A stretch of DNA of 30,657 bases, taken from Myxococcota bacterium. Its GTDB lineage: Bacteria; Myxococcota; SpSt-1050. A model generated the notes under the pieces. It ran no database searches. It saw only the letters and a list, made by a program, of their open reading frames with translations, and was not told the origin of the DNA. Position 1 is the first letter of the stretch, and every line of letters starts with the position of its first letter. The stretch covers positions 2,399-33,055 of the forward strand of contig JBMFOP010000028.1 in the NCBI GenBank assembly GCA_049969675.1, written 5' to 3'. The translations under genes and the position numbers were made by a program. Shown in pieces: positions 6,086 to 28,800 of this stretch.

Positions 6086-8029
6086 TTATTGACCTTTACT
6101 CTTATAATATTGTTCAAGAATCTGTCTTACCTGATTGGCATCAGGGGCATCGGGCTGGAGTTTTAAGTATGTCTCATATTCTTTTGCAGCCTTATCTACC
6201 TGCCCAATCTTGGTGTACGCCACCCCGAGGGAACGATGTGCAGCAGCCAGATTGGGTTTGAGCTTGATAGCCTTCTGATAGTTGGCAATTGCCTCTGCAA
6301 TCCTATTCTTCATAAGGAGCTTATTCCCCTCGGTGGTATAATCTTCAGCCGTTGGCTCGGCTGACTCTGTCTCTTTTGGTTGCTCCTTGCCCTTTGGTGA
6401 TGGTTGAGTCTCTGCCTTCGTAATGGCCTTCTGAACTTTAGATGGGCTCTGAGATGTCTTCTCTTCTTCCCTCTTTTCTACTCTTCTCTCTGCCTCTTTT
6501 ACATTTTGTGCCTCTTTCTGCTGCATTGCTATCTGTGGTTCTGTCTTGCTACCCTCACCTATCAGTCTTGCCTTCTCTTTTAATGCCATCTCGTTGCTCG
6601 GGTCAAGTTCAAGCACAAGATTGAATTCGGCCAGTGCCATATTCCTCTTCTTCTCTTTTGCAAATGCCATTCCCTGCCTCAAATGGTAGTCTATGTAATT
6701 TGATTTGAGAGAGGTCATCTCCTTAATCGCCAGTTGATAGTAGTAGCTATCTTTTGGAATGGAATTAAATCTCTTCCATGCATCATCCCAGTTTTTAAGT
6801 GAAAGCGAGGCAATGGCTTTATCATAATTCTCCTTCGTCTTCTCCTCCATAGTCGCCTTGCTCAAAAGTTGTTGAATATCTTTATCGTCTGGATACTGAT
6901 TTGCAAGTACAGAGAGTTGATTCTTCGCCTCTCCCCAGTTTGCAGCCAGCATATTCCTCTGTATATCTTCAAGTTTCTGCTTGTAGACCAGATCCGTCTC
7001 CTGCGTTGGCCCTTTCTCTCCTTTTGGCAGGAGAAAGATTATCGCCACCACGGCAACAATAGCGATTATTATACCGCCAATTATTAGACCTATGGGCTTC
7101 TTTTTTATTACTACCGGTTCAGTCTTTGAAAAATCATCGTAGAATGGCTCCTTTACCTCAACCTCCGCCTTCTCCTCTTTTGGTCTCTGGGGCATTCTGA
7201 CCACTGCAGTCTCCTGATAGACCTGTGGAGACCTTTCGTCAATGAATTTGAGTTTGAGATGTCCAAGCTCTATAATATCGCCATTTCTGAGTTCGGTCTT
7301 TGCATACTGTTCGCCATTTACAAGCACACCATTTGCACTCTTGAGGTCTATAATCTTGAACGAATTATTCTCATAGATTATCTGGGCATGTTCTCGTGAT
7401 ATAGATTTATGGTCAAGTACTATATCGTTTTCCTCCGTCCTTCCTATCTTCATTACTGTCTTATTCAGAGAGAACTCCTTCTCCGGTAGATGTCCCGCGA
7501 AGAGAACCAGCCTTGCGGTGCTATCAGGAATCTCCTGTGCCTCCTGATTTAGTGGGGTGGATATAGAAGGCATCCTTATCACAGCTGTTGATTCATACTG
7601 AGGCTCCGGTGCCTTCTTGATAGGTGTAATCTCCTCCTGCACCGGCGCCTGTGCTTGAGAGACAACCGGTGGCTGAAATGACTCCTCTATCTTCTTCTGA
7701 ACCGTAGGAGGTAATTCCTGAGTGATTTCGTCTCTATCCTGTTCATACTTAAGTATTATCTTATAATCACCGATATGGATTATATCTCCGTCTTTTATAA
7801 ATGCCTTTCCGTGAATCCTATCGCCATTTATCTTTACCCCGTTGTAACTATCAAGGTCCTGAATGACTATACCCTGATTCTCCTTGATAATCTTTGCGTG
7901 AAATCTGGAGACATTGCGCTCGGTCAATCTGATTACATTCCCCTCTTTTCTACCAATAGTAATCTCGGGCCACCTGAATGGGACCTGAGTTATTCTACCT
8001 TCATCATCTTCTATAATAATCTTATACAT
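6086..8029 (-). CDS. Tandem FHA-FHA, single TM, periplasmic TPR protein
   Basis: Two FHA domains with GR, SxxH and NG motifs (IGRKEGN...VSRFHA...SYNG and IGRTEEN...ISREHA...SANG). TM IGLIIGGIIIAIVAVVAIIFLL. TPR repeats such as AIANYQKAIKLKP. Confidence 0.9.
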   Translation of the reverse strand: MYKIIIEDDEGRITQVPFRWPEITIGRKEGNVIRLTERNVSRFHAKIIKENQGIVIQDLDSYNGVKINGDRIHGKAFIKDGDIIHIGDYKIILKYEQDRDEITQELPPTVQKKIEESFQPPVVSQAQAPVQEEITPIKKAPEPQYESTAVIRMPSISTPLNQEAQEIPDSTARLVLFAGHLPEKEFSLNKTVMKIGRTEENDIVLDHKSISREHAQIIYENNSFKIIDLKSANGVLVNGEQYAKTELRNGDIIELGHLKLKFIDERSPQVYQETAVVRMPQRPKEEKAEVEVKEPFYDDFSKTEPVVIKKKPIGLIIGGIIIAIVAVVAIIFLLPKGEKGPTQETDLVYKQKLEDIQRNMLAANWGEAKNQLSVLANQYPDDKDIQQLLSKATMEEKTKENYDKAIASLSLKNWDDAWKRFNSIPKDSYYYQLAIKEMTSLKSNYIDYHLRQGMAFAKEKKRNMALAEFNLVLELDPSNEMALKEKARLIGEGSKTEPQIAMQQKEAQNVKEAERRVEKREEEKTSQSPSKVQKAITKAETQPSPKGKEQPKETESAEPTAEDYTTEGNKLLMKNRIAEAIANYQKAIKLKPNLAAAHRSLGVAYTKIGQVDKAAKEYETYLKLQPDAPDANQVRQILEQYYKSKGQ

Positions 8030-8111
8030 CGCAAATACGGGATAATTGCCTGCTTAATTACATAACATAAAAATTCAATCTCTTCAAGAAAACCAGATAT
8101 CCCCCTTAATA

Positions 8112-8972
8112 CTAAAAGAGGTATGAGACATTAAAGCCAATGGTATTGAATAGATAAGTATTGAATCCACCCATCGTGTAGTTATAAGAGAGTTCAATAT
8201 TTAGATTCTCAATTGGGGAGTAGCCGATCCTCGGAATAAGATTGAATGAACCTATATCCTGAGGGACTGTCTCAAAAGGATTGGTATTGTCATCCATAGA
8301 AAATGGGATATACATACCGACTCCTATACCTGCATAGACCCCTTTTGTTATAATATAGGCGTAATTGATTTCAAGTTGATATTGATTCTCTGGCCTCTCA
8401 TCGTAAAATGCGAGACCGGTAAATCCATATATAAGATGAGAGTCAAAAGTCTTTTCAAATAGGTATCTAAGTTTGAAGGTAAACCTACCATCTCCAATGT
8501 TATATGGCTCCGGGTCAATCTTATTTGAGGTAGGAATAAGTATTGATGCGGAGATGGAGTGCTTGAAGAACAACTCTTTTACAGGGAGTCTAAAACCAAC
8601 CTCAAAGTCCTCAAGTCTTGTGATATCTGCTGATTTCTTGAGCTCTGGCTCTTTTAGATGAAACTTCTCCATCTGGACCCTGTCTGATGGGACCTCTCTA
8701 TTTGCCTGCCAGATTCTCAGGCCGAAATCAAAGTTAAGTTTCTCTAAGATACCGTAGGTAAGAGATAATTTGTAGTAATTTTCATAGTATTTTCTATCTA
8801 TGCCGGAGGGCATCGCATCTGAACTCCCATTGTAGTATGTACTGGTAGGGAGGCTAAAGTCCATAGATAGCTGAGTATATACCTCTTTATAATTTACCGA
8901 GACCGGTTCCTTTGCAGATGCAAAGGAAGTTAATAATAGAGAGACAAGTGATAGGATCACAAATCTTTTCAT
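8112..8972 (-). CDS. Outer-membrane beta-barrel protein, possibly a SphA/COG4313-like channel
   Basis: Signal peptide ending ASA, alternating aromatic beta-strands, C-terminal BAM-type signature GFNVSYLF, SD AGGAGG. Confidence 0.65.
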   Translation of the reverse strand: MKRFVILSLVSLLLTSFASAKEPVSVNYKEVYTQLSMDFSLPTSTYYNGSSDAMPSGIDRKYYENYYKLSLTYGILEKLNFDFGLRIWQANREVPSDRVQMEKFHLKEPELKKSADITRLEDFEVGFRLPVKELFFKHSISASILIPTSNKIDPEPYNIGDGRFTFKLRYLFEKTFDSHLIYGFTGLAFYDERPENQYQLEINYAYIITKGVYAGIGVGMYIPFSMDDNTNPFETVPQDIGSFNLIPRIGYSPIENLNIELSYNYTMGGFNTYLFNTIGFNVSYLF

Positions 8973-9008
8973 AAATACTCCTCCTGTAGTAAATACATAA
9001 GCAAAAAT

Positions 9009-9036
9009 ATATTACACAAAAGTTAATTATTGGCAA
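9009..9036 (-). promoter_or_regulatory. Candidate sigma70 promoter for the beta-barrel gene
   Basis: Minus-strand TTGCCA, 16 nt, TAATAT. Confidence 0.4.
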
Positions 9037-9090
9037 TAAAATAAGAGATGATAACAAATAGTGAACTCCAAACTATAATATGAATACCCC

Positions 9091-9858
9091 TCAAGGATTG
9101 GTCTCTGGTATACTGATAGTCTGCTTTATGAGAATAAAGTATTCCTGATTTCCTTTTGCCCCTTTGAGACGGGAAGGGAGAAAACCCACTATTTCGCAGC
9201 CCAGTTCTTTTATGAATTTCTGGATATCTACATTCAGCCTCTTTACAACCTCAACATCATTCATCATACCGCCGCGCATCACATCCTCTTTTGGTGCCTC
9301 AAATTGAGGTTTGAGTAAGATTAGAATCTTTCCATCCGGTTTTAAGAGAGAGAGTGCATTAGGTAAGATCTTCCTGACCGAGATAAATGAGACATCAATT
9401 AGAACAAGGTCCATCTTTTCTTTTATAGTTGAACAATCAAAATTCTTAAAATTACATCTCTCAAATAAAACTACTCTTTTATCTGTCCTTATTGAATAAT
9501 CCACTACGCCATATCCAACATCAAATCCATATACCTTCTTTGCACCATTTTTTAGGAGACAGTCTGTAAATCCACCTGTTGAAATCCCTATATCTGCACA
9601 TATAAAATCTTTTACATCAAGTCCAAAATCAGATAATGCTCCTTCAAGTTTTTCTCCGCCCCTGGATACATATTTTTTTGCTATAATCTCAATCTCTGAC
9701 TCAGGATTAACAAGTGTATCCGCCTTTCTAATCCTCTCTTTATTTACTATTATATCTCCAGACATTATGAGTGCTGATGCCTCTTTCTTATCTTCTGCCA
9801 GACCTTTCTTTATCAGGAGTTCGTCAAGCCTTATTCTATTTTCCTTTTTCTTCATCAA
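9091..9858 (-). CDS. tlyA: TlyA-family rRNA (cytidine-2'-O)-methyltransferase with S4 domain
   Basis: RLDELL S4 domain, YVSRGGEKL, DIGISTGGFTD SAM motif, DVSFIS, KPQFE and GNQEY (K-D-K-E tetrad intact). Confidence 0.95.
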   Translation of the reverse strand: MMKKKENRIRLDELLIKKGLAEDKKEASALIMSGDIIVNKERIRKADTLVNPESEIEIIAKKYVSRGGEKLEGALSDFGLDVKDFICADIGISTGGFTDCLLKNGAKKVYGFDVGYGVVDYSIRTDKRVVLFERCNFKNFDCSTIKEKMDLVLIDVSFISVRKILPNALSLLKPDGKILILLKPQFEAPKEDVMRGGMMNDVEVVKRLNVDIQKFIKELGCEIVGFLPSRLKGAKGNQEYFILIKQTISIPETNP

Positions 9859-9861
9859 TAA

Positions 9862-11187
9862 TCAAAATCTCTGCCACAGCTTACGGGATAGCTCAATTGA
9901 CCTTTTTGAGAGATCCTCTTCATCCACATCTATGGTAAGTCTCTTATTCTGCATCAATATTTTTCCACCGACTATGGTAGTATCGACTATCTCCTCAGAG
10001 ATTCCGTATATTATATGTCCAAGCGCCGTATTATCATCAAGCGGTGTGGGTGGATAGTAGTCAATCAATATTATATCTGCTGCCGCTCCCTCTGATATCT
10101 CACCGAGTTTTATACCAAAGTGTTTTGAAACAAATTCTGGGTTATTAAATAGTAAAGTATTTGCGACCTCTGTAAAGCAACAACCCGGATTATTCTGTCT
10201 TAAGTGCTGTCCAAAGAGTGCGACTCTCAGTTCCTCAAACATATTGACCGTCATCGCATCTGTGCCGAGTAGAACTTTTATCCCCTTCTTGCTCATTGAA
10301 AGTATATCGGCAATCCCAACGGCATTATTCAGATTTGACTGCGGGTTGTGTACCACAAAGGATTTACGTCTTGAGATGAGATTCATCTCACCTCTATCTA
10401 TATGAACACAGTGTGCGAGGATACTTTTATCATTTAATATCCCAAATTTATCAAGTCTATTGACAACTCTCATCTTATAATTCTTCAGAGAATGCTCCTC
10501 ATCAGATAATGCCTCTGCACAGTGTATATGAAATCCAGCACCGAGCCCATTTCCTTTTTCAGAGGCGATCCTCAGGGTCTCATCCTCAAGTGTAAATGAG
10601 GCGTGAAGTCCAAACATCGCCTTTATAAATTCTGAATTTCTCTTCCCAGTCCATTTTATAAAATCCTCATTCTCTCTGATGCCCTCATCTCTGATCGTTC
10701 TACCATCTCTATCTGAGACCTCGTAGCAACAGGAGACCCTCAGCCCAGCCACCTCAGCCGCCTTTGCGATCTCAAAGAGAGAACCTCTTATTGAATTTGG
10801 AGATGCGTGATGGTCTATAAGTGTGGTGGTCCCGTGTCTGATGGCGTTTATCATCATCATCAATGAAGAGTAATAGATATCTTTCAGATTTAACTTCTTA
10901 TCAAGTCTCCACCAGAGGTTCTTCAGGACCTCATTAAAGTCCTTTGATGGCTTTGCCTTTGAGAGCCCCCTTACCATCGTTGAATAAAAGTGCATATGAT
11001 TATTTATGAGACCGGGCATCACCACCTTATTTGTGGCATCAATTATCCTGTCATATTTCCCCCTGAATTGATTGACAGATGCGATCTCTCTAATTCTGCC
11101 ATCTTCAATAAGTATTGCACTATTTTTAAGAACACGATTCTTCTTCCCGAGCGTAATTATGGTTCCATTTTTAATTAACATCTTCAT
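9862..11187 (-). CDS. ssnA: SsnA-like metal-dependent amidohydrolase (purine/pyrimidine ring hydrolysis)
   Basis: PGLINNHMHFYS, LWWRLD, GTTTLIDHHASP, MFGLHASFTL, HIHCAE, HNPQSNLNNAVG and LGTD. Start 11187 follows SD GAGGAG. Confidence 0.88.
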   Translation of the reverse strand: MKMLIKNGTIITLGKKNRVLKNSAILIEDGRIREIASVNQFRGKYDRIIDATNKVVMPGLINNHMHFYSTMVRGLSKAKPSKDFNEVLKNLWWRLDKKLNLKDIYYSSLMMMINAIRHGTTTLIDHHASPNSIRGSLFEIAKAAEVAGLRVSCCYEVSDRDGRTIRDEGIRENEDFIKWTGKRNSEFIKAMFGLHASFTLEDETLRIASEKGNGLGAGFHIHCAEALSDEEHSLKNYKMRVVNRLDKFGILNDKSILAHCVHIDRGEMNLISRRKSFVVHNPQSNLNNAVGIADILSMSKKGIKVLLGTDAMTVNMFEELRVALFGQHLRQNNPGCCFTEVANTLLFNNPEFVSKHFGIKLGEISEGAAADIILIDYYPPTPLDDNTALGHIIYGISEEIVDTTIVGGKILMQNKRLTIDVDEEDLSKRSIELSRKLWQRF

Positions 11188-11206
11188 ATATTCTCTCCTC
11201 TTTACT

Positions 11207-13699
11207 TTATCCTTCATTCAGCATCCTGAGTTCTCCCTCTGTTCTCTCTCTCATATAAAGGGCACCGGCAAAGCACTTCTGTACACATATTGAACAACCA
11301 ATACATCTTGACGGGTCTGTCTCTGGAATCTTTTTATTATTTAATCTTATTGCCAGATACGGACATCTGGTGCAGTTTCCGCAGTGTTGACAGAGCCCCT
11401 CTCTCACCTGTGAAATCTTCTTGATCGGAGTCAGCTCCATAAAAGGTGTTATTGGGTCTGGGAGTGCAGCACCTCTCAATTCGGCTATTGAATTGAACCC
11501 CCGTGATTTCATCAGATAACTGACTCCCATCATCAGGTCGTCAATTATCCCATAGCCATATTTCATTACGATTGTACAGAATTGAACAGTATTTACACCG
11601 AGCGCAAGGAAATCGGCCGCCGCTTTATAGTCCATAGGCCCGCCATTGCCGGATACCTCAATGCTCATCTTTGATACATTTGCCAGTGTCAGATAACTAA
11701 TAGGCAGTACCCCTTCACCGCTCATACCAACAATTATCCCCTCTTCCCACCTCTCTTTCTTCCCTTTTCTAAATGCCAGTGTTGGGAATGTGTTTGCAAG
11801 TGTAATCCCTGCCATCTTATCGGGATATCTCTGAAAGACCTCTTTTATGGCACTTACAATCGGATAGATGGATGTGACTGCGGCTGTCAATTTAAATAGT
11901 TTTGGGATCTCTGGATCGGATACCTCCATAACCCAGCCAACTATCTTTGCAGTGAGATCTGGGTCCTGCGAGACAATATCCCCTTTTGTACCGTCTCCCC
12001 CCTGAGGGCAGCTGAGACTGTATTCAATCGCCTTAACCCCTGCATTTTCAAGCCTCTTTGTATTGGACTGCCAGACTCTACTATCTGATTCGTCATTCCC
12101 TGTAACCGGCCCACCGGTTGATACGATTGTAAGTCTATCTGGATACTCCCTGATTAATCTTTCAGCCTCGCGTGCCACTCTATCAAGTGGATGAGCTGAG
12201 ACATTGTCGCAATTTGCATAGGTAGACTTTCCAAACACAAACATATATTCTGAGGGGATGTGTATAGGGACATTGTCAAAAGTGGTCTTCATTACGCCAC
12301 CGGCCCAACCCATATCGTATGCCTTCTTCATCTGCTCATATCCATCTGATGGGGGGGCCGCCGAGAGAATAAATGGAGAGATAATATCCATATTAAAAAA
12401 TTTTGTAGTGAGCGGAATCGGTTGTTTTATCAGACCTTTTAAGATATAGAAGCTCTTAAAGTCCTTTTTAATTGAGATTGCCTTCTCTTTCTTTAGAAAA
12501 GAATCTATTCTCAGTGCTGCATTCTTTCCACTTGCAACTGCCTCCACCACGGTCGTTGGACCATTGACGAGGTCACCTGCATAGAAGACCCCCTTTTTAT
12601 TTACAATCCTGAATGACCCCCTTGCCCCTATAGATTGTACGATGATATCAAATCCATCCCTCCTCTGCTCGGTCCCTTTCAAATCCTTTACAAGAGATGG
12701 ATGAAACTTACATCCCTCTTTTAAAAAGACCTTTACTGTCTCAAGAGAAATCTTCCTCCCCTTCTTTGATATCCCTGTAATCCTTGTGCGATTGGTGAGG
12801 TGGATATTGTATTTAAGAAGCTCTTCAAACTCCTTTTTAGTAAGTGGTAGTTCAGATAATCTCTCCAATGTAAATAGTTCTACAAGATTTGCACCTCTCT
12901 CTTTAGCCACGATGGCACAATCAACTGCAACTGCCCCACCACCTATAATAGCAACATTTCTACCTTTAAGTGCAACCCCTTTCTGCTCACTCAAAAATTT
13001 AATCCAGTCAACAGTATGCTCAACCCCTTTAATATTCAGGCTATATGGCGAATTCAATCCTGTTGCAACAAGCACTGCATCATACTCTGCAAGTAGCTGT
13101 TCCGCATCTTCAACTTTACTCTTTGGTTTAAAATTGATGTTACCAAGTGAAAGTATAAATTCTATGTCAGATTTCAAGACATATTTATCAAGTCTTGAAT
13201 CTGGAATCAGATTGCACATCCCCCCGGGTTTATATCCCTCTTCATAGATTGTGATATTATAACCCATCTGTGCAAGAGAAGCCGCCGCACCAAGCCCTGC
13301 CGGGCCTCCGCCAACAATAGCCACATTAAATTCATTTGGTTCAGGAAGATTAAACCTCGGAAGCAGATTCATCTCTTTCGCCTTCTGTATGATAGTCGCC
13401 TGAACCGCTGGAATATTTATCGGATTATCAAATGTCTTCCTTGAACAGGCAGCCATACAGTGCCTATCCGGACAGACTGCCCCGCAGATGCCACCCATTG
13501 GATTTGCAGAGTATATAAGTGCCGCTGCCCTCTCAAAATCTGAGGGAAAGAATCTCTTCGCCGCCATCATAAAATCGGCCGGAGAGCAATGTGCAGGGCA
13601 CGCATCCCGACAGGGCTTCTCCTCACAAAATTCACACCTCTCAATCTCTGATTTGAGCTGCGCATCTGTGAGAAACTTTATCTCTTTTCTATTCTTCAT
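11207..13699 (-). CDS. Single-chain dihydropyrimidine-dehydrogenase-like Fe-S flavoenzyme (PreT-PreA fusion, DPYD domain order)
   Basis: N-terminal CxxCxxxxCxxxCP...CGAVCP Fe-S domain, GGGPAG FAD motif, GGGAVAVD NAD(P)H motif, FMN barrel (KT, SCPQG, NT, GNGG) and a C-terminal 8-Cys ferredoxin. Confidence 0.85.
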   Translation of the reverse strand: MKNRKEIKFLTDAQLKSEIERCEFCEEKPCRDACPAHCSPADFMMAAKRFFPSDFERAAALIYSANPMGGICGAVCPDRHCMAACSRKTFDNPINIPAVQATIIQKAKEMNLLPRFNLPEPNEFNVAIVGGGPAGLGAAASLAQMGYNITIYEEGYKPGGMCNLIPDSRLDKYVLKSDIEFILSLGNINFKPKSKVEDAEQLLAEYDAVLVATGLNSPYSLNIKGVEHTVDWIKFLSEQKGVALKGRNVAIIGGGAVAVDCAIVAKERGANLVELFTLERLSELPLTKKEFEELLKYNIHLTNRTRITGISKKGRKISLETVKVFLKEGCKFHPSLVKDLKGTEQRRDGFDIIVQSIGARGSFRIVNKKGVFYAGDLVNGPTTVVEAVASGKNAALRIDSFLKKEKAISIKKDFKSFYILKGLIKQPIPLTTKFFNMDIISPFILSAAPPSDGYEQMKKAYDMGWAGGVMKTTFDNVPIHIPSEYMFVFGKSTYANCDNVSAHPLDRVAREAERLIREYPDRLTIVSTGGPVTGNDESDSRVWQSNTKRLENAGVKAIEYSLSCPQGGDGTKGDIVSQDPDLTAKIVGWVMEVSDPEIPKLFKLTAAVTSIYPIVSAIKEVFQRYPDKMAGITLANTFPTLAFRKGKKERWEEGIIVGMSGEGVLPISYLTLANVSKMSIEVSGNGGPMDYKAAADFLALGVNTVQFCTIVMKYGYGIIDDLMMGVSYLMKSRGFNSIAELRGAALPDPITPFMELTPIKKISQVREGLCQHCGNCTRCPYLAIRLNNKKIPETDPSRCIGCSICVQKCFAGALYMRERTEGELRMLNEG

Positions 13700-13791
13700 A
13701 TTAACTCCTTATAGATTGGTTAGTCACCAAACATGAGTCCCGGATTTATTACAATAATTTCAAAAATGCAAAATTTTTGTATATTTTGTGT

Positions 13792-19724: not shown

Positions 19725-21419
19725 TCACCAGAAATAGATATTCAAAAATATTAAGACTGCAAGGGATACCAATGCCCAGGTAAATGGCTTTTTATAAAAT
19801 GGCACCTTTTCAAGGTCGGGATTCGGGGTAAGCCCCTTCACCAACCCCTGTAGCTCCTCATCAGTCTTTGGCTTTGTAAATAGTGAGATAATTATTGTCA
19901 AAAGAAAACATACTATCCACGCCCACGACGCCTGCCAGAGATTTAATGTCATATCAGATGGGACAGACGGACAGAGCGAACGGGAGGAGGGCATAAATGT
20001 GAGATAGTAATACCAATCGCAGGAGAGCCATTTGAACTTAAATGCAAGAAAGAGTAAAAAGGATGTGAGCATACCTGCAATAAGCCCCCAGAATGCACCA
20101 GCAGATGTCGTCCTCTTCCAGAACATCCCGAGTAGCATCGTGGCAAATAGCGGTGCATTCACCCAGCTGAATATAGCCTGAATATAATCCATTATCGTAG
20201 GAAATGATTTTGCCACATATGCGGTCACCACACTCAATAAAATTCCTATAATTGTAAACAATCTTCCCACGAATACGAGGTGACTATCGCCTGCATCTTT
20301 CTTTATTGCTGCTTTATAGATGTCGTAAGTAAAAACAGTGTTAAATGCTGAGGTATTCCCAGCCTGCCCCGCCATAAAACCTGCAAGCAGAGCGGTTATC
20401 CCAAGTCCCACAAGTCCAGATGGATAATATCGGGCGATCAGCAGTGGGAGCGCAGAGTCTGCATTTGTGATATTTCCTGCTGCGTCTCTCTCAAGCGGGA
20501 GTATTCCGATGGAAGACAATTTATATGCAACGAGTCCAGCCACCACTACAATAAAGGGTAATGCCATCTTAAAAAATGATGCAATGATTGGTGTAAGTCT
20601 CGCAGTCTGCAGATTCTTTGCGGTAAATGCCCTCTGTACAATAAGAAAGTCGGTGGTCCAGTATCCAAATGAGAGGACAAATCCAAGCCCGATAGCGATT
20701 CCATACCAGGTCACTCCCATTGGATTATTTCCCGGATCTCCAGCGGTAGCCCACAGAGAGGTCATTCGCTCTGGAAGTCCTTCAAAGAGCCCACCGAAAC
20801 CACCTACATCAATTATCCCAAGGATAGATACCAGAAAGAGCCCAAACCATATTAGAAAGAACTGCAGTGTCTCTGTAAGTATTGCGGAGAGCAATCCACC
20901 AAGTGCGATATATGATGCCACGGCCGCAGCAGAGACCCACATACATAGATCCCAGTTCCATCCAAGTATCGTGTGAAATACGAGAGCCATAAGGTATAGA
21001 TTTATTCCAGACATCAAGACTGTCATTATCGCAAAGGAGATTGCATTCAAAAGCCTCGTCCTCTCGTCAAATCTTAAAAGCAGATAACCGGGGATAGAGT
21101 GTATTCTGGAGGAGTAATAAAACGGCATCATATAAAGCCCCAGAAATATCATCGCTGGAATGGCACCTATCCAGTAAAAATGGGAGACAAACATCCCATA
21201 TTTTACAGTTCCACCGGTCCACCCCAGAATCTCCAGTGCCCCGAGATTTGCTGAGACGAAGGCAATTGCACAGACCCATAACGAGTTCTTCCTCCCCGCA
21301 AGGAAGAAGTCCTCCTTTGTATCTGCAAATCTCTTAAGATACCATCCGAGACCGATGACGAAGCCGAAATAGAGGATGATTATTATCCAGTCCAGAACTC
21401 CAAGATGAATCACTGCCAT
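19725..21419 (-). CDS. Sodium:solute symporter (SSS/SLC5), probably sugar or polyol
   Basis: LDWIII, FFLAGR, YIALGGL, GYWTTDFLIVQR, FTYDIY and LGMFWKR motifs. About 14 TM segments. SD AAGGAG. Confidence 0.93.
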   Translation of the reverse strand: MAVIHLGVLDWIIIILYFGFVIGLGWYLKRFADTKEDFFLAGRKNSLWVCAIAFVSANLGALEILGWTGGTVKYGMFVSHFYWIGAIPAMIFLGLYMMPFYYSSRIHSIPGYLLLRFDERTRLLNAISFAIMTVLMSGINLYLMALVFHTILGWNWDLCMWVSAAAVASYIALGGLLSAILTETLQFFLIWFGLFLVSILGIIDVGGFGGLFEGLPERMTSLWATAGDPGNNPMGVTWYGIAIGLGFVLSFGYWTTDFLIVQRAFTAKNLQTARLTPIIASFFKMALPFIVVVAGLVAYKLSSIGILPLERDAAGNITNADSALPLLIARYYPSGLVGLGITALLAGFMAGQAGNTSAFNTVFTYDIYKAAIKKDAGDSHLVFVGRLFTIIGILLSVVTAYVAKSFPTIMDYIQAIFSWVNAPLFATMLLGMFWKRTTSAGAFWGLIAGMLTSFLLFLAFKFKWLSCDWYYYLTFMPSSRSLCPSVPSDMTLNLWQASWAWIVCFLLTIIISLFTKPKTDEELQGLVKGLTPNPDLEKVPFYKKPFTWALVSLAVLIFLNIYFW

Positions 21420-21441
21420 AAAATACTCCTTTCCACGATAA

Positions 21442-22758
21442 TTAATATCTGTAATTTATATGAATCTCTCCAAGATATTGAGTCTCTGTCTGGTTTATAT
21501 CATACATATTAATATAAGAGGATGCCGCCTTCCCCGGAAACAGCATACCAAATACCCCTGTGATATCCCACCCTTTTGAGAACTCAACACCGAGTATAAG
21601 ATCAGTCTCAAGACCTACAAATGAGCCACCATTCGCATTTCCGGAATTTGTTACAAATGCAGTGCCTACAACGAAGGCTGGCTTTAAGATACCAGCCTCT
21701 GTATACTCCGCCTTTATATCAAAGAGCATCAGCCCCGGGCGCATCACATAAAATGGACCATCAGATACCGAGAGCCTCTCATCAACATTATTGTATTGGT
21801 CTCTAAACTCATCCTCTGAGAGAAGGATTGTACTGGACCTGTTCTTGCCGGAGTAGTAGAATCCACCGTTGAATTTATTGTTGATGTATCTATCATCTGC
21901 AGAGAGGTATAATCCGTTTAAGGTTAGAGAGAATGCCTTTAACCTCTCAATAAGATTCAGATTTAGTCCAAATGAGAGCTCCCTTACATCTTCACCGCCT
22001 ATTGCGGCATTCTGCATTGCGCCAAACTGAAGTATTACATCAAATATCAGTTTAAGTGATTCATAAAAATACATATATGAGAGGAGTGGAGAGTGAATCA
22101 GGTTTGACCTGTTTATCACAGAATCATCGTAGTATGAATACCAGCCCAATGTAAGGGCATCTCTCCCCGTTATACCAAAGCTACTTGAGAGGGCAAAGAG
22201 CCATCTATCATTTGCAAAGTTATTGGTACGGGCTGTGAGCCCTTCATAATTTGAATCGGGGAGCTGTGCAATCAGAAGATAATTTTTGGTCATAGAGATA
22301 TCAAATCCGAGTTGAAATGCACCTATCCAGTGATTGATAAAGAGGCCGGTTGGGTCAATTATTCGCATATATCCCGACCTGATGCGCACTGAATTCTCTA
22401 AAAATTCTGCACTCCCATAAATCTCCCTGTGCCTCAGGACGAATATGTCATCTGATACAGGGTCAATAATGTCCGGGTTGTTCTTGCTCCAGATATTTGA
22501 GCCGAGTTCAGCCTCATAAAAGATATAGACATCATTTGTAATATTTAATGTCAGACGCGAATTGAGATAGGTGGCAAAGAGGCCTTCAGAATCACCCTGT
22601 GGTTGATACAACCTTGTAGAGTTGTCAAAGTCAGAATCGTTCTTGTAATAAAAGAAGTTGTCCAGATTCATATCCAGATTTAATGCCCTTGATATCTGCT
22701 CTGAACTCACGCTCGCAGAAACCAGAGAGAAAAAAAATAATATAATTATCTGCTTCAT
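21442..22758 (-). CDS. Outer-membrane beta-barrel porin-like protein (alginate-export-like size)
   Basis: Signal peptide from MKQII (start 22758 after SD AAGGAG), amphipathic strands, GLETDL motif and C-terminal HINYRY. Confidence 0.7.
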   Translation of the reverse strand: MKQIIILFFFSLVSASVSSEQISRALNLDMNLDNFFYYKNDSDFDNSTRLYQPQGDSEGLFATYLNSRLTLNITNDVYIFYEAELGSNIWSKNNPDIIDPVSDDIFVLRHREIYGSAEFLENSVRIRSGYMRIIDPTGLFINHWIGAFQLGFDISMTKNYLLIAQLPDSNYEGLTARTNNFANDRWLFALSSSFGITGRDALTLGWYSYYDDSVINRSNLIHSPLLSYMYFYESLKLIFDVILQFGAMQNAAIGGEDVRELSFGLNLNLIERLKAFSLTLNGLYLSADDRYINNKFNGGFYYSGKNRSSTILLSEDEFRDQYNNVDERLSVSDGPFYVMRPGLMLFDIKAEYTEAGILKPAFVVGTAFVTNSGNANGGSFVGLETDLILGVEFSKGWDITGVFGMLFPGKAASSYINMYDINQTETQYLGEIHINYRY

Positions 22759-22768
22759 ACTAATCTCC

Positions 22769-25171
22769 TTATCTTGCAATTACTTTATAATTATCACCTT
22801 CCACAATGATGTGGTATCTATACCCATCCGGGTCAAATCCCTTAATGGGTGGTCTGATGATAACTGAGTGTACCCATTCTGGTTCATCTCTGAAAGGATA
22901 ATAATAAATCCTGTTCTCCTCCCTTGAATAGTAGATACTTCCATCCGAAATGTAGACATAAAACTCATATCTAAAACTCTTACTCCCATCCTCGCAGGGT
23001 CTGCATTCATCTGTATGTGTAAAACAGATTACATCCCCGCACAACTTATATTGTTCAGGCGGAACGAAGATCTCTGTGGGTGCATCGGTCTCTTTTGATT
23101 TGAATCTCAACAAGAATTCGTGTCGCATATCACAAACCCCCTTATCCGGGTCAAAGTAATGATAGCTTGAATAAAAATGAGTCTCAACTGGCTTTCCACT
23201 TATTGCAATCGCTGTTGGCCTTGAGAATGCCGATTCCCCTCTGAGTCTCTGCTCGGGGTCAAGGACCGAGAAATCCTCTTTATTCCATCTATCTCCATAT
23301 CTATAATCATTATCTGCGGTAAAGCACCATTGAATCTTACCCAGAAAGAGATTTTCAAATGCCTCATAATAGTTGTCCAGAATCTCTGTAGATATTCTAT
23401 ACTTTGATTCTCTTGATACATCAATGCCACCAAAATTAAAATATGTGCCAAACTCCCCAAAGACCACCGGTACATTGTCAAGAGAACGTTTAGCAATATC
23501 CACCTTCTTCTTTAATTCCGGTGTATAATCTTTGTATCTCACCTCTGATAACTTTAAATCTCTCGGATTTACATTTATACCCGGGAAAGGATAAATATCG
23601 GGGTACCAGTGTGGAGTAAAGACCACCTGACTTATTCCCTCTGGTTTTAACATCTCCAGAGCGTACTGTCCTCCTATCCCAGCCGAACCCAATAGTGAAT
23701 CTATGGATACTGACTCCTCCACCCAGATAATTGCATCCGGATCCACCTCTAAAATCCCCTTCCCGATCTTTTCATAGAGGGGTTGTAGATAATTCCTGCC
23801 AAATCCTACATTAAGAGAGATTGCAGATAACATATCCATATCAGCGAGCCCCCACTCAGCAATTATCTTATCTCTTTCATCTCTAATATTATTGCACTCA
23901 TTTTTATGCTCTTCATCTGGCTTATCACAGTACTCCGGAAGTTCGGGGAGATTAGGTATTATTCTGAGTTTAGTAAGAATATTTGAAATCTGTTTTGCCT
24001 TTGTAGGACCAAGTAAGTCTGAGAGCATCTTATTCAACCCATTGTCAAGCCCCAGCTCTACATATGCCCCGAGTGCGGGGAGAACCAGATATGCCCCGAC
24101 TGGCTCATTCAAGAGGTCATAACCGATTATATTCCTGTGGTTCCTTCCCTTCTCTGCGACCTTCTTCCAGACATTTACAAGGGAATCCTGTAGATAGTCT
24201 TTGATATTATATTCCAGCCCATTATAAATTACCTTCATCTTTGGGAAGACCCTGTCTCCGGCAAAGAGAGCGGCATATGCCCTCTGTATATCCAGTGATA
24301 GTGCTATATTTAATCCCCAGTTGCTCCAGGGAAGTAAATCGGAACTTTCCTTTACAGATTGAGGGGTAAAACCACACTGATTGGAATATGCAATAGAATT
24401 TAATAATTTTGTAATCTCCTCATCCGAGAGTCCACCACCACCACCATCTCCTAAAAGTCCTGCCAGATCCCCTGCGACATCTGGAATAAATTTTAAAGAC
24501 TTAAATGTCCCCCAGCTCTTACCTCCGATATAAGGGGCCTTCTCCGGCAGCACCGCCTTTACTGCCCAGAGTGGAGCACCATCTCCAGTTACAATATCAG
24601 AGAATGGATTCATCTCACACGGATTCGTGGCTTTACTGAAGTCCCGCGGGAAGAGAGAGCCAATCATCCCCATCAGTTCCCCCTTTTCCCCTATAATCGG
24701 AACCTCATTGTATTTTACAAAGAGATGTCTTGAGAAGCCGTTCTCATGCATATTTATCAGGACATATATTCCATGCTCCTCTGCCTTTGCAATGATCTTA
24801 TCAAAGTAATCAAGAAACTCTTCATCATATACGCCCTTCTCATTCGGTTCAACTGCCTCCCACATAAAGAGCAACCTTATAGTATTAAACCCAGCGTCTT
24901 TAATAATCCTGAAATACCTATCTGCCTCTTCAAGAGGAAAGGGCCTTCCAATATAAGTGTATGTCCCATCCTCTCTCTTTATAGGGACCTTGGTGCTACC
25001 TCCCAGATTCACTCCAGTAAAATTCAGATATCTCCCGTATCCATCCCTGATATATGTAAGGTCAACATAAGGTCGGGTCATTGAAGGCGGCTTAAATTCC
25101 GGTCTCTCTTCAATGCAACTACACATTAGAATCAATAAACCAAAAGTTGTAAATAAAGAATTATATTTCAT
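22769..25171 (-). CDS. GH5 glycoside hydrolase lipoprotein, endoglycoceramidase-related / steryl-glucosidase-like
   Basis: LMCS-C lipobox. GVNLGGSTKVP, GRPFPLEEAD, RLLFMWEAVEP and DGAPLW motifs. Acid/base LLNEP, PHWY, nucleophile GEFG, and GDRWNKEDFS. SD GGAGG. Confidence 0.88.
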   Translation of the reverse strand: MKYNSLFTTFGLLILMCSCIEERPEFKPPSMTRPYVDLTYIRDGYGRYLNFTGVNLGGSTKVPIKREDGTYTYIGRPFPLEEADRYFRIIKDAGFNTIRLLFMWEAVEPNEKGVYDEEFLDYFDKIIAKAEEHGIYVLINMHENGFSRHLFVKYNEVPIIGEKGELMGMIGSLFPRDFSKATNPCEMNPFSDIVTGDGAPLWAVKAVLPEKAPYIGGKSWGTFKSLKFIPDVAGDLAGLLGDGGGGGLSDEEITKLLNSIAYSNQCGFTPQSVKESSDLLPWSNWGLNIALSLDIQRAYAALFAGDRVFPKMKVIYNGLEYNIKDYLQDSLVNVWKKVAEKGRNHRNIIGYDLLNEPVGAYLVLPALGAYVELGLDNGLNKMLSDLLGPTKAKQISNILTKLRIIPNLPELPEYCDKPDEEHKNECNNIRDERDKIIAEWGLADMDMLSAISLNVGFGRNYLQPLYEKIGKGILEVDPDAIIWVEESVSIDSLLGSAGIGGQYALEMLKPEGISQVVFTPHWYPDIYPFPGINVNPRDLKLSEVRYKDYTPELKKKVDIAKRSLDNVPVVFGEFGTYFNFGGIDVSRESKYRISTEILDNYYEAFENLFLGKIQWCFTADNDYRYGDRWNKEDFSVLDPEQRLRGESAFSRPTAIAISGKPVETHFYSSYHYFDPDKGVCDMRHEFLLRFKSKETDAPTEIFVPPEQYKLCGDVICFTHTDECRPCEDGSKSFRYEFYVYISDGSIYYSREENRIYYYPFRDEPEWVHSVIIRPPIKGFDPDGYRYHIIVEGDNYKVIAR

Positions 25172-25817: not shown

Positions 25818-28800
25818 TTAATTCAATTCTTTAAGTGTGTAATGCCCTTTTGAGAATTCGGTTTCATCTTTGTATAGCAGTTCTTTTGCCCCCTTTACCA
25901 TAAGATAGAGTCTATTAAAAATGTTAACTTCGCTCGTGCAGGAATCAAAATCCAGAAACAATAGATTGAGCTCGGGGTAATATCTCTTTAATACCTTCTC
26001 CACCCCTTTTGAGACAATATGATTGGCAATACATCCAAATGGCTGAAGGCTAACCACATTCCTGATTCCGCTCTCTGCATACGAGCATACCTCTGCCGGA
26101 ATCAACCACCCCTCTCCAAACTGATTTACAAGATCAACTATCTTCTGAGCCTTATATGCCTTTGTAAATATGTCGTGAGATGGTGAATAAAATTTATATG
26201 CAGAAATAATCTTTTCAACCCTATTTATATATTCTGAGGCAACTACCTCAAGCACTGCTGCAAAGAGGTGTTTGACAGATGCCCTCTCCATAAAGGATTT
26301 TGTATTTACCTTAACATTTACGAAGAACTGCATGAAGAAGTCTGCTATCTGCGGGGCAATCACCTCTATCCCCTGCTCTACAAGCCATTCACAAATATTA
26401 TTATTGCTGAAGTCGTTATATTTTAAGAATATCTCTCCTACAATTCCAATTTTTGGTACATCCTCGGATATAACCTTAATTCTGTTAAAAGAATCCACAG
26501 CGTTATTTAAGAGTGCCATCATCCCATCGTAGTTTGACCTCTCTACATACATCCTGGCTGCATCAATAAATCTATTCAGAACCGTGCGGGATTCACCTCT
26601 GTTCTTCTCCCTTGCAACGGAGGCATAATACATCCTTGCAAGGGCATCCGCATAAAGCCCACTAATAAATGCAATCTTGATGAGCCTCTTCCATTCTATA
26701 TAAAATCCGGGCTGATCATTATTTACATCGCCATCAAAACCAATAGATACTACCGGCACATCCTTAAAACCAGCCGCAATGACTGCCTTTTTCAGAAGTG
26801 GGACATAATTTGATGCCCTGCACTGCCCTCCAGTCTGTGTGAGAGCAACCGCTATCTTATCTCTCTCATACCTCCCCTCTGAAAGTGCCTTTATAATGTC
26901 CCCTATAACTATAGTCGCTGGATAACAGACCTCGTTATTCACATATTTGAGGCCATACTCTACAGATTTATAATCTGGCGGTGGCAGGACCTCCACATCT
27001 ATTCCGGCATTTTTGAAGACCCACGGAATAAATGGTGAATATATATCTGAGAAGTGCGGTACTATAATCTTTCTATATCTATCCCGTCTGGTATATCTCT
27101 TTGAACTCACAAACTCCCTCTTTCTGGGCACTTTTGTGTTTTTCAATGTCTCTTTAAGAGATAGGAGCCTCAACTTTATTGCCCCAGGGTTGGAAAACTC
27201 ATCTACTCTGATAAGCAGATAGTAATGGCCACCTCTATTTACAATCTCTCTGGCTTCATCTACAATAAATGAGTCGGGTCCGCAACCAAATGAATTTATC
27301 TGTACAAGACTGGTCTTCATTGATTGGGCATTTACCCATCGGGCTGCCTTTATTATCCTGTTTATAAATGCCCATTGTGGAATTGCAAATATCTCTTCAA
27401 AACTTAATTCCTCTCTCTCAAGGGCATCCTCTGTAATTGAATCTATCCCTATATCAGAGACTATCTTTGCCACTCCCTGATTTATCAGAGGGTCAATATG
27501 ATACGGTCTCTGGGCAAAGACAAATAACGGCTTATTATTCTCCCGGCAGTCTCTGATAATCTCCTCAGCCTTCTTTATTACCTGCGTCCTGTATTCAAGG
27601 TATGATATCTGCGCTGCATCAAATGCCCTGTTGAATGTCTCATAATCTATACCGAGTGTACTCAGATAACTGAAACAGGAGGATTTGAGCAAAAATTCAT
27701 CCTTGAAATTAATCGGAGGGGAATCAAAAGGTATCTGATATTTATTATATGGGTCTATTGAACTTCTCAACACATCCGCATACGAGGCAACTATAGGACA
27801 GTTGTAGGTATTGATTGCCCCATCAATATTATTTCGCTCATAAATAATTATAGGATAAAATATCCTATCCACCCGCTTTTCAATAAGATTCATTATATGC
27901 CCGTGGGCGAGTTTTGCCGGGAAGCAGATATTATCTGCCATCACAGTTCCAAGACCTTTGGCATATATAGCATCGGTAGAGACATCAGAGAGGACCACCT
28001 CAAATCCACACTGTTCAAACAACTCTCTAAAGAATGGGAAATTCTCATACATACTCAATATGCGAGGTATCCCTATCTTTTTATCAAAATTTCTATTGTT
28101 ACTCTCTCTCTCAAAGAGCAGTTTATTCTTATATTCTACAAAATTAAACCCTTTTGTCTCAGACTCCGCCCTGTTTGAATATATCCTCTCACATCTATTC
28201 CCATTGTAGTATTTATTCCCATTTTCAAAGGTATACCTTGTAATCTCACATCTGTTTTCACAGGCGGCACAACGAATATTATCAATCCTGTAATTGATTG
28301 TAGCGATATCCTTAAAATCAAATCCACTTCTCTTCCCTGTGCTCTCAGATAATTCCTTTGCATAGAGTGCCGCTCCAAATGCCCCCATAAGTTCCGGCAC
28401 ATCCGAGATATATACCTTCTTTCCGATCTCCTTCTCAAATGCCCTTAAAATTGCAAGATTCTTAAATGTACCGCCCTGAACCACAATATTCTCTCCGAGC
28501 TCACTCACATCTTTCAGTCTCAGCATCTTATAAAGACAATTCTTGATAACTGAATATGCAAGACCGGCGGTAATATCCGATATAGTAGCCCCTTCCTTTA
28601 ATGCCTGTTTTATCTTTGAGCCCATAAAGACTGTACATCTCGTCCCGAGGTCACAGGGGGCATCCGATCTTGCACATATCTTTGCAAAGTCCTTTATATC
28701 TATAGAGAGTGAATCCGAGAAAGAACTCAAAAATGAACCACAGCCAGAGGAACAGGCTTCATTGATGATTAGATTATTCAAAAATCCGTCTACAATAAAC

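Follow-up and report, generated by a model that had tools for sequence, protein, structure and literature searches.

The window analysed here, a stretch of 30,657 nucleotides from a Myxococcota bacterium, carries two closely spaced genes on its minus strand. The first (11207..13699) runs from 13699 down to 11207 with no stop inside and encodes an 830-amino-acid (aa) flavoenzyme, a PreT-PreA fusion in DPYD order that we predict to be a 2,8-dioxopurine reductase. An RBS-like AAGGAG (13705..13710, minus strand) lies 5 nt 5' of its ATG. The second, ssnA (9862..11187, minus strand), encodes a 441-aa metal-dependent amidohydrolase that scores over the cut-offs of both NF005540 (546.9 bits; cut-off, 444) and TIGR03314 (500.3 bits; cut-off, 455.5). 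Its HxH, HxH, and GTD metal-binding motifs align with those of E. coli SsnA, to which it is 34% identical, and it is predicted to open the ring of the substrate once that ring has been reduced. How far apart are the two genes? The first-pass annotation, made from the sequence alone, put the gap at 19 nt, which is right if ssnA begins with the ATG at 11187. We take this as the start because a second RBS-like element, GAGGAG (11195..11200, minus strand), lies within the gap 7 nt upstream and the product then has 441 aa, as in most relatives; the first in-frame ATG, at 11217, would produce an 11-nt overlap with the stop of the fusion gene. A scan for promoters and terminators gave chance-level results (23 versus 17.1 +/- 4.8 and 3 versus 3.6). 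The tlyA gene, 3 nt past ssnA, was rejected as a member of the system, since it does not appear among the 40 neighbour clusters found most often at the loci. Its placement after ssnA is kept in 3/3 same-genus genomes.

The modules of the 830-aa chain are readily followed with Pfam. A two-cluster Fe-S domain (Fer4_20, aa 9-111; 13367..13675) precedes the FAD and NAD(P)H domains (Pyr_redox_2, aa 124-391; 12527..13330), which carry GGGPAG and GGGAVAVD motifs. Next come the FMN barrel with the substrate pocket (DHO_dh, aa 430-727; 11519..12412), aligned to pig DPD 474-857, and a C-terminal 2x[4Fe-4S] ferredoxin with eight Cys (Fer4 families, aa 765-815; 11255..11407), all encoded on the minus strand. 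Pfam and the pig DPD alignment agree that this FeS-FAD-NAD(P)H-FMN barrel-ferredoxin order is that of DPYD, and the uninterrupted frame bears out the single chain first described. Pig DPD is also the closest solved relative (E 4.8e-48), with the modules matched in the same order. The N-terminal Fe-S residues C22, C25, C30, C34, C76, C81, C85, and Q100 are each invariant in 120/120 close relatives, as are all eight Cys of the ferredoxin domain. Gln100, in the motif INIPAVQ, aligns with pig DPD Gln156, which we take to be an Fe-S ligand; presumably the ligand roles of the Fe-S Cys and Gln residues and the catalytic role of the SCP Cys are likewise as in DPD. The cofactor-selecting loop holds L278-E279. 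While the protein matches PF01180 (34.7 bits; cut-off, 27), it falls under every NCBIfam cut-off shown, scoring 197.1 against 335 for PreA (NF006183) and 143.9 against 835 for YgfK (TIGR03315), the latter match covering model positions 421-840 only. Single-chain bacterial forms have been noted before (29 of 3419 candidates; PMC7332683).

The protein belongs to a large, conserved family of 2382 matches in many phyla, whose members the databases label PreA or dihydrouracil dehydrogenase; we found no assay of any of them in the literature. Hosts include Elusimicrobiota, Ignavibacteria, Verrucomicrobiota, Acidobacteriota, Chloroflexota, and deltaproteobacterial MAGs. The linkage to ssnA noted at the outset is conserved: ssnA adjoins in 61/80 family loci, no more than 1.3 kb downstream on the same strand, with a median gap of 30 nt. 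In the remaining loci, ssnA is divergent (1), the locus is too short (8), or ssnA is absent (10), and all 18 genomes behind the short or ssnA-less loci have an SsnA-family match elsewhere, over cut-off in 14. Some hosts (L032, L033, and L036) have two ssnA-like genes, and some (G028, G036, G037, and G083) retain a second PreA-like gene. In one protein, P0252, a fused-family barrel is joined to an SsnA-like domain; this single sequence may be an assembly or gene-calling artefact, and 7998 scored candidates held no further barrel-SsnA fusion. A search for shorter homologues returned mostly matches on short contigs, likely fragments, and gives no support for split forms.

Does the fused family take the place of YgfK? 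The first-pass annotation had raised the possibilities of a canonical ygfK elsewhere in the genome and of mutual exclusion between the two genes. No YgfK barrel was found in the source genome, which is 99.9% complete, and across genomes the genes do exclude each other. Among 79 family host genomes, which are MAGs related to one another and of unstated completeness, the YgfK N-terminal barrel was not found in 74. The other five, all Verrucomicrobia, have only a short, FAD-less YgfK-barrel protein directly beside the fusion gene; coexistence of the two barrels is thus possible, and their substrates may differ. A phylum sample of 151 genomes contains 25 with SsnA (threshold of 430 bits, plus one truncated gene), and every one of these has exactly one of three reductase types, namely the fused family (9), a sister fused clade (8), or full-length YgfK (8). 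The Fisher test on these 25 gives a p of 9e-7, to which we attach no weight because the genomes are kin and the SsnA threshold was set after the scores were seen.

The reaction in question is known from other bacteria, as the oxygen-free pathway of uric acid breakdown was solved in 2025 (Li et al., PMC12507026; Liu et al., bioRxiv 10.1101/2025.04.24.650524). In those studies, E. coli YgfK is DOPOR, an NAD(P)H:2,8-dioxopurine oxidoreductase that acts with SsnA; in vitro, YgfK or UacX together with SsnA converts yanthine (2,8-dioxopurine) to UMH (PMC12507026, Fig. 2 legend), whereas YgfK without SsnA yielded no product (Li et al.). The fusion resembles YgfK in its place beside ssnA, its FMN barrel, FAD/NAD(P)H, and Fe-S modules, its one-for-one exclusion, and its predicted reaction. 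It differs in that the barrel is N-terminal in YgfK but C-terminal in the fusion, and in that NADPH-using YgfK has Arg-Arg whereas the cofactor loop here is acidic. Of the two kinds of YgfK replacement first suggested, the non-orthologous one is upheld by linkage and exclusion. The other, a domain-permuted YgfK, was rejected: in the tree, the FAD half joins PreT/PydX with a support of 96, and three YgfK rows stand elsewhere; this half retains the Gln ligand, which is missing from E. coli YgfK; and the barrel match to YgfK is weak (17% identity; HHalign probability, 92%).

Like the pathway itself, a DPD-like YgfK replacement is already in print, and the novelty of the replacement idea is lower than was first thought. 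C. difficile UacX is a PydA homolog that replaces YgfK and is active with SsnA (Li et al. 2025, PMC12507026); it is probably also the "dehydrogenase X1" of Barba et al. (PMC4016543). UacX has no FAD domain, and the electron donor in the assay was reduced methyl viologen (PMC12507026). By the working definition of Li et al., a PF01180 protein no more than 15 genes from ssnA (PMC12507026), the fused family would count as UacX, yet it carries an FAD/NAD(P)H half. Is it then clostridial UacX with that half gained or kept, one family in two layouts with the same chemistry? We regard this as unlikely. Both have a DHOD/DPD-type PF01180 barrel and C-terminal ferredoxin beside ssnA in a urate cluster, both have Ser at pig position 668, and an AU test in which the family and the UacX rows were held together did not reject the joint tree (p 0.41), these rows being stand-ins from matching C. 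butyricum and C. novyi clusters rather than the assayed C. difficile protein. The stand-ins, however, have 362 aa and no SCP loop, and the fused family is only 20% identical to them over the barrel, under its identity to PreA/PydA (29%) or to the sister clade (31-33%). Moreover, in each of the two best trees the family falls inside the sister clade, fully supported, and UacX branches far outside. The fused family thus probably arose apart from clostridial UacX, as judged from these alignments and trees.

The sister clade, annotated PreA and occurring in split or fused form, groups with the fused family at 100/100. The two share D611 and S668 (the sister motifs read LGNIDLIS and ECSFSCPQG), but the sister clade passes the PreA cut-off (426-430 bits) and keeps L612/I613, and its split forms, unlike the fused family, mostly lack the Gln ligand. 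At sister-clade loci, xdh genes adjoin in 15/23 and ssnA in 3/23, and YgfK is excluded in 8 genomes. We found no characterised sister-clade enzyme in the literature.

The fusion departs from DPD in its pocket. In pig DPD, N609, T737, N736, and G764 bind uracil N1/O2/N3, N668 binds O4, and L612/I613 line the 5-position (PMC10970046). The motif ANCDNVS (aa 495-501; 12197..12217, minus strand) aligns with pig LNIELIS, keeping N609 as N496 and placing D498, N499, and V500 where pig has E611, L612, and I613; its N, C, D, N, and V are conserved in 120/120 close relatives. The catalytic loop EYSLSCPQG (aa 559-567; 11999..12025, minus strand) aligns with pig ELNLSCPHG, keeping S670 and C671 as S563 and C564 and placing S561 at N668. 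The pair N636-T637 (11789..11794, minus strand) is kept from pig N736-T737, with N in 120/120 close relatives and T in 118 (S in 2). Overall, the 830-aa protein, which is shorter than DPYD (1025 aa), retains K574/T575, N609, S670, C671, K709, N736, T737, and G764 but not the full uracil-binding set (N668S, E611D, L612N, I613V): the contacts to the N1/O2/N3 edge are kept, and the O4 contact and the 5-position wall are altered. Position 668 is Ser in 25/25 family rows, 16/16 sister-clade rows, and both clostridial UacX-type rows, and Asn in 33/33 PreA/PydA-like rows outside the clade. The motifs reported earlier, including the INIPAVQ Gln and the SCP, are all there in the pig DPD alignment, and their differences from DPD are real, except that His673 to Gln is no mark of specificity, since Gln is also found in E. 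coli PreA and a C. butyricum PydAc-type protein. We do not claim Ser668 for YgfK as well, because the loop is ambiguously placed in the profile alignment.

Could the enzyme nevertheless be an ordinary or dual-use uracil/thymine DPD that sits within purine clusters and partners a HyuA-like enzyme? The DPYD order, the Gln ligand, the catalytic Cys, and the four kept uracil contacts would suit such an enzyme, as would the labels of its relatives and the fact that it is the sole PreA-like gene of the source genome. We nonetheless hold this to be highly improbable: no family row has Asn668 and all the outside rows do, the PreA score is 197 against a cut-off of 335, and in the trees Burkholderia PydA, E. 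coli PreA, and the PydAc-type protein all lie away from the family. Furthermore, where Pyd clusters have dihydropyrimidinase and ureidopropionase, the fusion is linked to ssnA and purine genes instead. No ureidopropionase-type enzyme over the TIGR01879 cut-off was found in the source genome or in 33 of the 38 hosts given handles (5/38 have such a match), and a second PreA-like gene is present in G028, G036, G037, and G083. A nitrilase-family gene on another source-genome contig, C108, is a possible ureidopropionase, which would favor an ordinary DPD.

The observed architecture, motifs, gene linkage, exclusion of full-length YgfK, and presence of other pathway genes lead us to propose, with a probability of roughly 80%, that the 830-aa protein is a single-chain reductase of 2,8-dioxopurine that stands in YgfK's place and feeds the adjacent SsnA. 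The substrate, the cofactor, and all of its catalytic steps are what we infer. The purine-derived or modified base first suggested as the substrate is narrowed, as a prediction, to 2,8-dioxopurine. By DPD homology, NADH (likely here; NADPH in some relatives) would reduce FAD, and electrons would pass across four Fe-S clusters to FMN. The kept pocket residues would read the N1-C2(O)-N3 edge common to uracil and 2,8-dioxopurine, and Ser at the O4-binding Asn668 together with Asn-Val at the Leu-Ile wall would leave space for the fused imidazolone. Judged by alignment, the altered side of the pocket would fit 2,8-dioxopurine, whose second ring would sit there. Hydride from FMN and a proton from Cys564 would saturate C5=C6 of the six-membered ring, and SsnA would hydrolyse the reduced product to ureidomethyl-hydantoin, pulling the reaction forward. 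In the anaerobic, reductive breakdown of urate, fusion and SsnA would thus take the two central steps, between an upstream Xdh step and downstream HyuA-like, YgeW, and YgeY steps.

Candidate genes for these flanking steps are found on other contigs of the source genome, as the first-pass annotation had thought worth checking. YgeW (697.8 bits; cut-off, 453) and YgeY (575.2 bits; cut-off, 321) are over their cut-offs and 66% and 56% identical to the E. coli proteins. There are also a hyuA-like gene, two xdh sets, and xdhC- and mocA-like genes; the HyuA-like and Xdh proteins do not reach the cut-offs of their families and are 42% and 67% identical to products of the clustered form in L043. At family loci, ygeY is present in 29/80, and xdh is recurrent, as are genes for 8-oxoguanine deaminase (11) and adenine deaminase (8). 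A YgeW-family match exists in 36 of the 38 hosts given handles, over cut-off in only 19, compared with the 5 that have a TIGR01879 ureidopropionase-type match. Counting against the 2,8-dioxopurine reading, YgeX, SelD, and YqeC have no match over cut-off in the source genome, while the urate pathway of C. sporogenes requires selenium, and SsnA shares only 34% identity with the E. coli enzyme that was assayed. YgeX is found in 0/80 family loci; two PLP enzymes probably stand in for it.

Might the enzyme instead reduce a different substrate, whether 6,8-dioxopurine, a methylated dioxopurine, urate itself, or some other oxidised purine or modified base, for a related SsnA branch ending in the two PLP enzymes? 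The long family stem (0.97 changes per column in one tree and 1.7 in the other), an Asn499 that is family-specific and differs from the sister clade, the lack of YgeX, SelD, and YqeC matches, the short YgfK barrel beside the fusion gene in five genomes, and the hosts with two ssnA-like genes all speak for it. It is still quite doubtful, as the YgfK slot is filled one-for-one across genomes; YgeW and YgeY, whose substrates are compounds derived from diureidopropionate, are well conserved; and xanthine, urate, and 6,8-dioxopurine keep an O4-equivalent oxygen and would be expected to need Asn668.

Beyond the proposed 2,8-dioxopurine reductase, a broader history has even odds, in our estimation. 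A DPD branch would have been re-tooled from pyrimidines to a purine: in a large clade linked to purine genes, whose members now bear PreA annotations, the one change of Asn668 to Ser would have opened the pocket, and the single-chain family would have gone further. 2,8-Dioxopurine reduction would then have an origin separate from YgfK and UacX, with Ser668 reached twice, and would serve a urate pathway that needs neither selenium nor YgeX and that surveys based on ygfK miss in many environmental phyla. If the proposed reductase reading is right, the missing reductase slot of the anaerobic urate pathway would be filled in the listed phyla where ygfK counts show a gap, and many "PreA" annotations would be corrected. 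With a well-solved structure for reference, the family would also allow a sharp test of how a DPD pocket changes over from uracil to a bicyclic base. Finally, the best enzyme mix for urate-lowering probiotics is still open (Li et al., PMC12507026), and a one-gene, likely NADH-using reductase is a candidate part for such strains.

The fusion gene lies on the minus strand of the window (13699-11207) and encodes a single 830-aa chain in which a Pfam search finds Fer4_20, Pyr_redox_2, DHO_dh, and Fer4, in that order. Its best solved relative is pig dihydropyrimidine dehydrogenase (DPD), and the match runs from front to back, bearing out the FeS-FAD-NAD(P)H-FMN barrel-ferredoxin order proposed in the first-pass annotation. 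Escherichia coli PreT is 32% identical to the N half and PreA 28% to the C half, and the protein scores below all NCBIfam cut-offs shown (197 of 335 for PreA, 144 of 835 for YgfK). Its neighbor, an amidohydrolase ORF on the same strand ending at 9862, is over the cut-offs of both SsnA models. If ssnA starts at the ATG at 11187, the gap between them is indeed 19 nt. In the accessible text of Li et al., YgfK or Clostridioides difficile UacX acts with SsnA to convert 2,8-dioxopurine to ureidomethyl-hydantoin (bioRxiv 10.1101/2025.05.19.654654; PMC12507026).

Elsewhere in the window, a tlyA-like gene (S4 plus FtsJ methyltransferase; 9091-9858, minus) lies 3 nt past ssnA, a linkage conserved only in three same-genus genomes. 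A 705-aa vWA protein that looks secreted and has a long tail of cysteine-rich repeats (67-2184, plus; Pfam VWA, Cu-binding_MopE) has counterparts flanking the reductase in loci L201 and L202. A single minus-strand run (19725-25171) encodes a GH5-like glycoside hydrolase, an unknown 445-aa protein, and a sodium:solute symporter, and a BadF/BadG-type CoA-enzyme activase occupies 25818-30104.

How widespread is the pairing with ssnA? Among 8000 candidates scored, 2382 homologs were found at E <= 1e-50; the best 120 are 61-100% identical to the fusion, and almost all have a length near 830 aa. When 50%-identity representatives were searched without a profile, the family formed a tier at 45-70% identity, with the next matches at 39% and lower. 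Of 236 GTDB loci, the best 80 were kept, and the titles of their records name Elusimicrobia, Ignavibacteriae/Bacteroidota, Verrucomicrobia, Acidobacteriota, Chloroflexota, Deltaproteobacteria, Planctomycetota, KSB1, Caldiserica, and others. Counted at >=40% identity to the window's own gene, ssnA lies <=1.3 kb downstream in 61 of the 80 (one with an intervening gene, one partial). One locus has it in divergent orientation, 10 lack it, and 8 are too short. In all 18 genomes behind these last two groups, an SsnA-family match turned up elsewhere, over the cut-off in 14, slightly below it in 2, and truncated in 2, and the linkage suspected from the window alone is conserved. Two further architectures were noted: an SsnA extended at its N-terminus by 537 aa that lack any Pfam match (L174:6966-9896, minus), and P0252, a 955-aa protein from one ENA contig in which the family's barrel plus ferredoxin, minus the FAD half, is fused to an SsnA-like domain scoring 378 bits against a cut-off of 444. 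The latter, a single sequence, could be an artefact.

If these enzymes stand in for YgfK, the two should exclude each other, as the first-pass annotation anticipated. No YgfK barrel was found in the window's own genome (99.91% complete), where TIGR03315 matches are limited to the FAD half, nor in 74 of the 79 genomes from which the loci come. The other five, all Verrucomicrobia, carry a short, ~670-aa YgfK-like barrel-plus-ferredoxin form adjoining the family gene. This short protein (~670-720 aa, no FAD domain) is encoded divergently to the fusion in these five (L024, L040, L077, L079, and L083; about 7500-9700, minus) and elsewhere (L114-L118, L182) behind a thrC-like gene and a second ssnA type, with which it possibly forms a further reductase-hydrolase module. 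Among 151 genomes of the window's own phylum, a set partly overlapping the locus genomes, the family occurs in 10 and a fused sister clade in 8, none with a YgfK barrel. The 25 with a strong SsnA each carry one, and no more than one, of the three: the family in 9, the sister clade in 8, and full-length YgfK in 8. In both genome sets most members are incomplete MAGs, and related genomes do not count as independent. The exceptions are G107 (81% complete), which has the family gene although the genome search found no SsnA-family match, and two genomes with a long YgfK but no strong ssnA.

What might the enzyme reduce? In the accessible text of PMC10970046, pig DPD contacts 5-fluorouracil at N1 and O2 through N609, at O2 through T737 and (via water) G764, at N3 through N736, and at O4 through N668, S670, and N736, with L612 and I613 close to the 5-substituent. 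By alignment, the fusion keeps the equivalents of N609, S670, N736, T737, and G764. The motifs originally listed are present as claimed, and the altered pyrimidine-contact residues are confirmed: N668 is replaced by Ser, L612 by Asn, I613 by Val, and E611 by Asp. We take DPD Q156 to be an Fe-S ligand and C671 the catalytic Cys. Uracil and the six-membered ring of 2,8-dioxopurine share an N1-C2(O)-N3 edge, and the two nitrogens of the purine's second ring occupy the positions of uracil O4 and C5. Judged from sequence, the pocket changes fall on this second-ring edge. Position 668 is Ser in 25/25 family, 16/16 sister, 3/5 other in-clade, and 2/2 UacX-type rows, and Asn in all 33 outside the clade. 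The unusual pocket is fixed rather than drifting, because N-C-D-N-V (496-500), S561, C564, and Q566 are identical in 120/120 relatives. NADH is the likely cofactor, since the cofactor loop reads Leu-Glu, versus Arg-Arg in YgfK and Arg-Glu in NADH-using PreT of E. coli; Arg-Arg or Arg-Lys occurs in 19 of 79 locus members. YgfK is NADPH specific, and the first pathway step selenium dependent, in the available portion of Liu et al. (bioRxiv 10.1101/2025.04.24.650524).

Where did the family come from? In barrel trees of 82 rows (quick method) and 43 of these (mixture model), with animal DPYD left out, it forms a single long-stemmed clade (100/100) nested with the sister clade (100/100); the two then join Burkholderia PydA, E. 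coli PreA, and a C. butyricum PydAc-type protein. The sister clade (LGNIDLIS/ECSFSCPQG proteins, annotated PreA) is purine linked, with xdh genes in 15 of 23 loci and ssnA in 3. Its members, split and fused (L119-L141, L152-L159, L199-L201), adjoin xdh and 8-oxoguanine deaminase genes, have Ser668 in common, and are probably also purine reductases. The FAD half clusters with PreT/PydX, apart from YgfK. Of the two forms of YgfK replacement first envisaged, the non-orthologous one is supported, with ssnA linkage and ygfK exclusion upholding a YgfK-like role; domain permutation is not supported. Could these proteins instead be UacX? The network of Li et al., Elusimicrobiota included, colors every PF01180 neighbor of ssnA as UacX, which in their accessible text lacks the FAD domain (PMC12507026; bioRxiv 10.1101/2025.05.19.654654). 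A 362-aa barrel protein that matches how UacX is described occurs in clostridial clusters alongside D-aminoacylase, ygeY, ssnA-like, and xdh genes; it is 20% identical to the family over the barrel and placed far outside it. A separate origin is favored but not shown, because an AU test did not reject a joint clade (p 0.41).

Other pathway genes recur around the family. ygeY adjoins it in 29 of 80 loci, with cysK-like (21) and thrC-like (19) PLP-enzyme genes, xdh, ygeW, hyuA-like (11), 8-oxoguanine deaminase (11), and adenine deaminase (8) genes; in Ignavibacteria (e.g., L043) they are united in one operon. In the window's genome they are dispersed over small units, at 42-74% identity to the operon forms: ygeW with a cysK-like gene (contig C20), ygeY with a thrC-like gene (C37), hyuA-like with xdh (C62), a second xdh set (C142), and xdhC-like with mocA-like genes (C33). 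The threonine-synthase-like (C37:493-1686) and cysteine-synthase-like (C20:11402-12859) enzymes, which also accompany the cluster in loci such as L043 and L037, are candidates for the last step of the pathway; YgeX is missing from all 80 loci. Of 38 host handles (37 genomes, picked by the author among the phylum hits and the 79 locus genomes), 36 have a YgeW-family match, 19 of them over the cut-off, and 5 have a TIGR01879 match. Roughly half the hosts (L014, L017, L032, L037, and others) have a ~335-aa YgeW-like carbamoyltransferase (150-239 bits; cut-off, 500) replacing typical YgeW. The Xdh enzymes of the window's genome may be selenium-free, because neither selD nor yqeC had a match over the cut-off in the whole genome.

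The accessible parts of earlier papers describe an uncharacterized "dehydrogenase X1" adjoining ssnA, ygeW, and xdh (Barba et al., PMC4016543) and single-chain bacterial PydA in 29 of 3419 candidates (Wang et al., PMC7332683); those of PMC12990295 and PMC12547972 hold nothing further on the DPYD-order family. The literature searched, which covered few subscription papers, yielded no description or assay of this form. Overall, the family comprises real, conserved, and widespread reductases that are YgfK-like in role by every genomic test available, yet belong neither to YgfK nor to uracil DPD, and probably not to UacX. They represent a new version of a pathway step already described, with 2,8-dioxopurine as predicted substrate and NADH as predicted cofactor.
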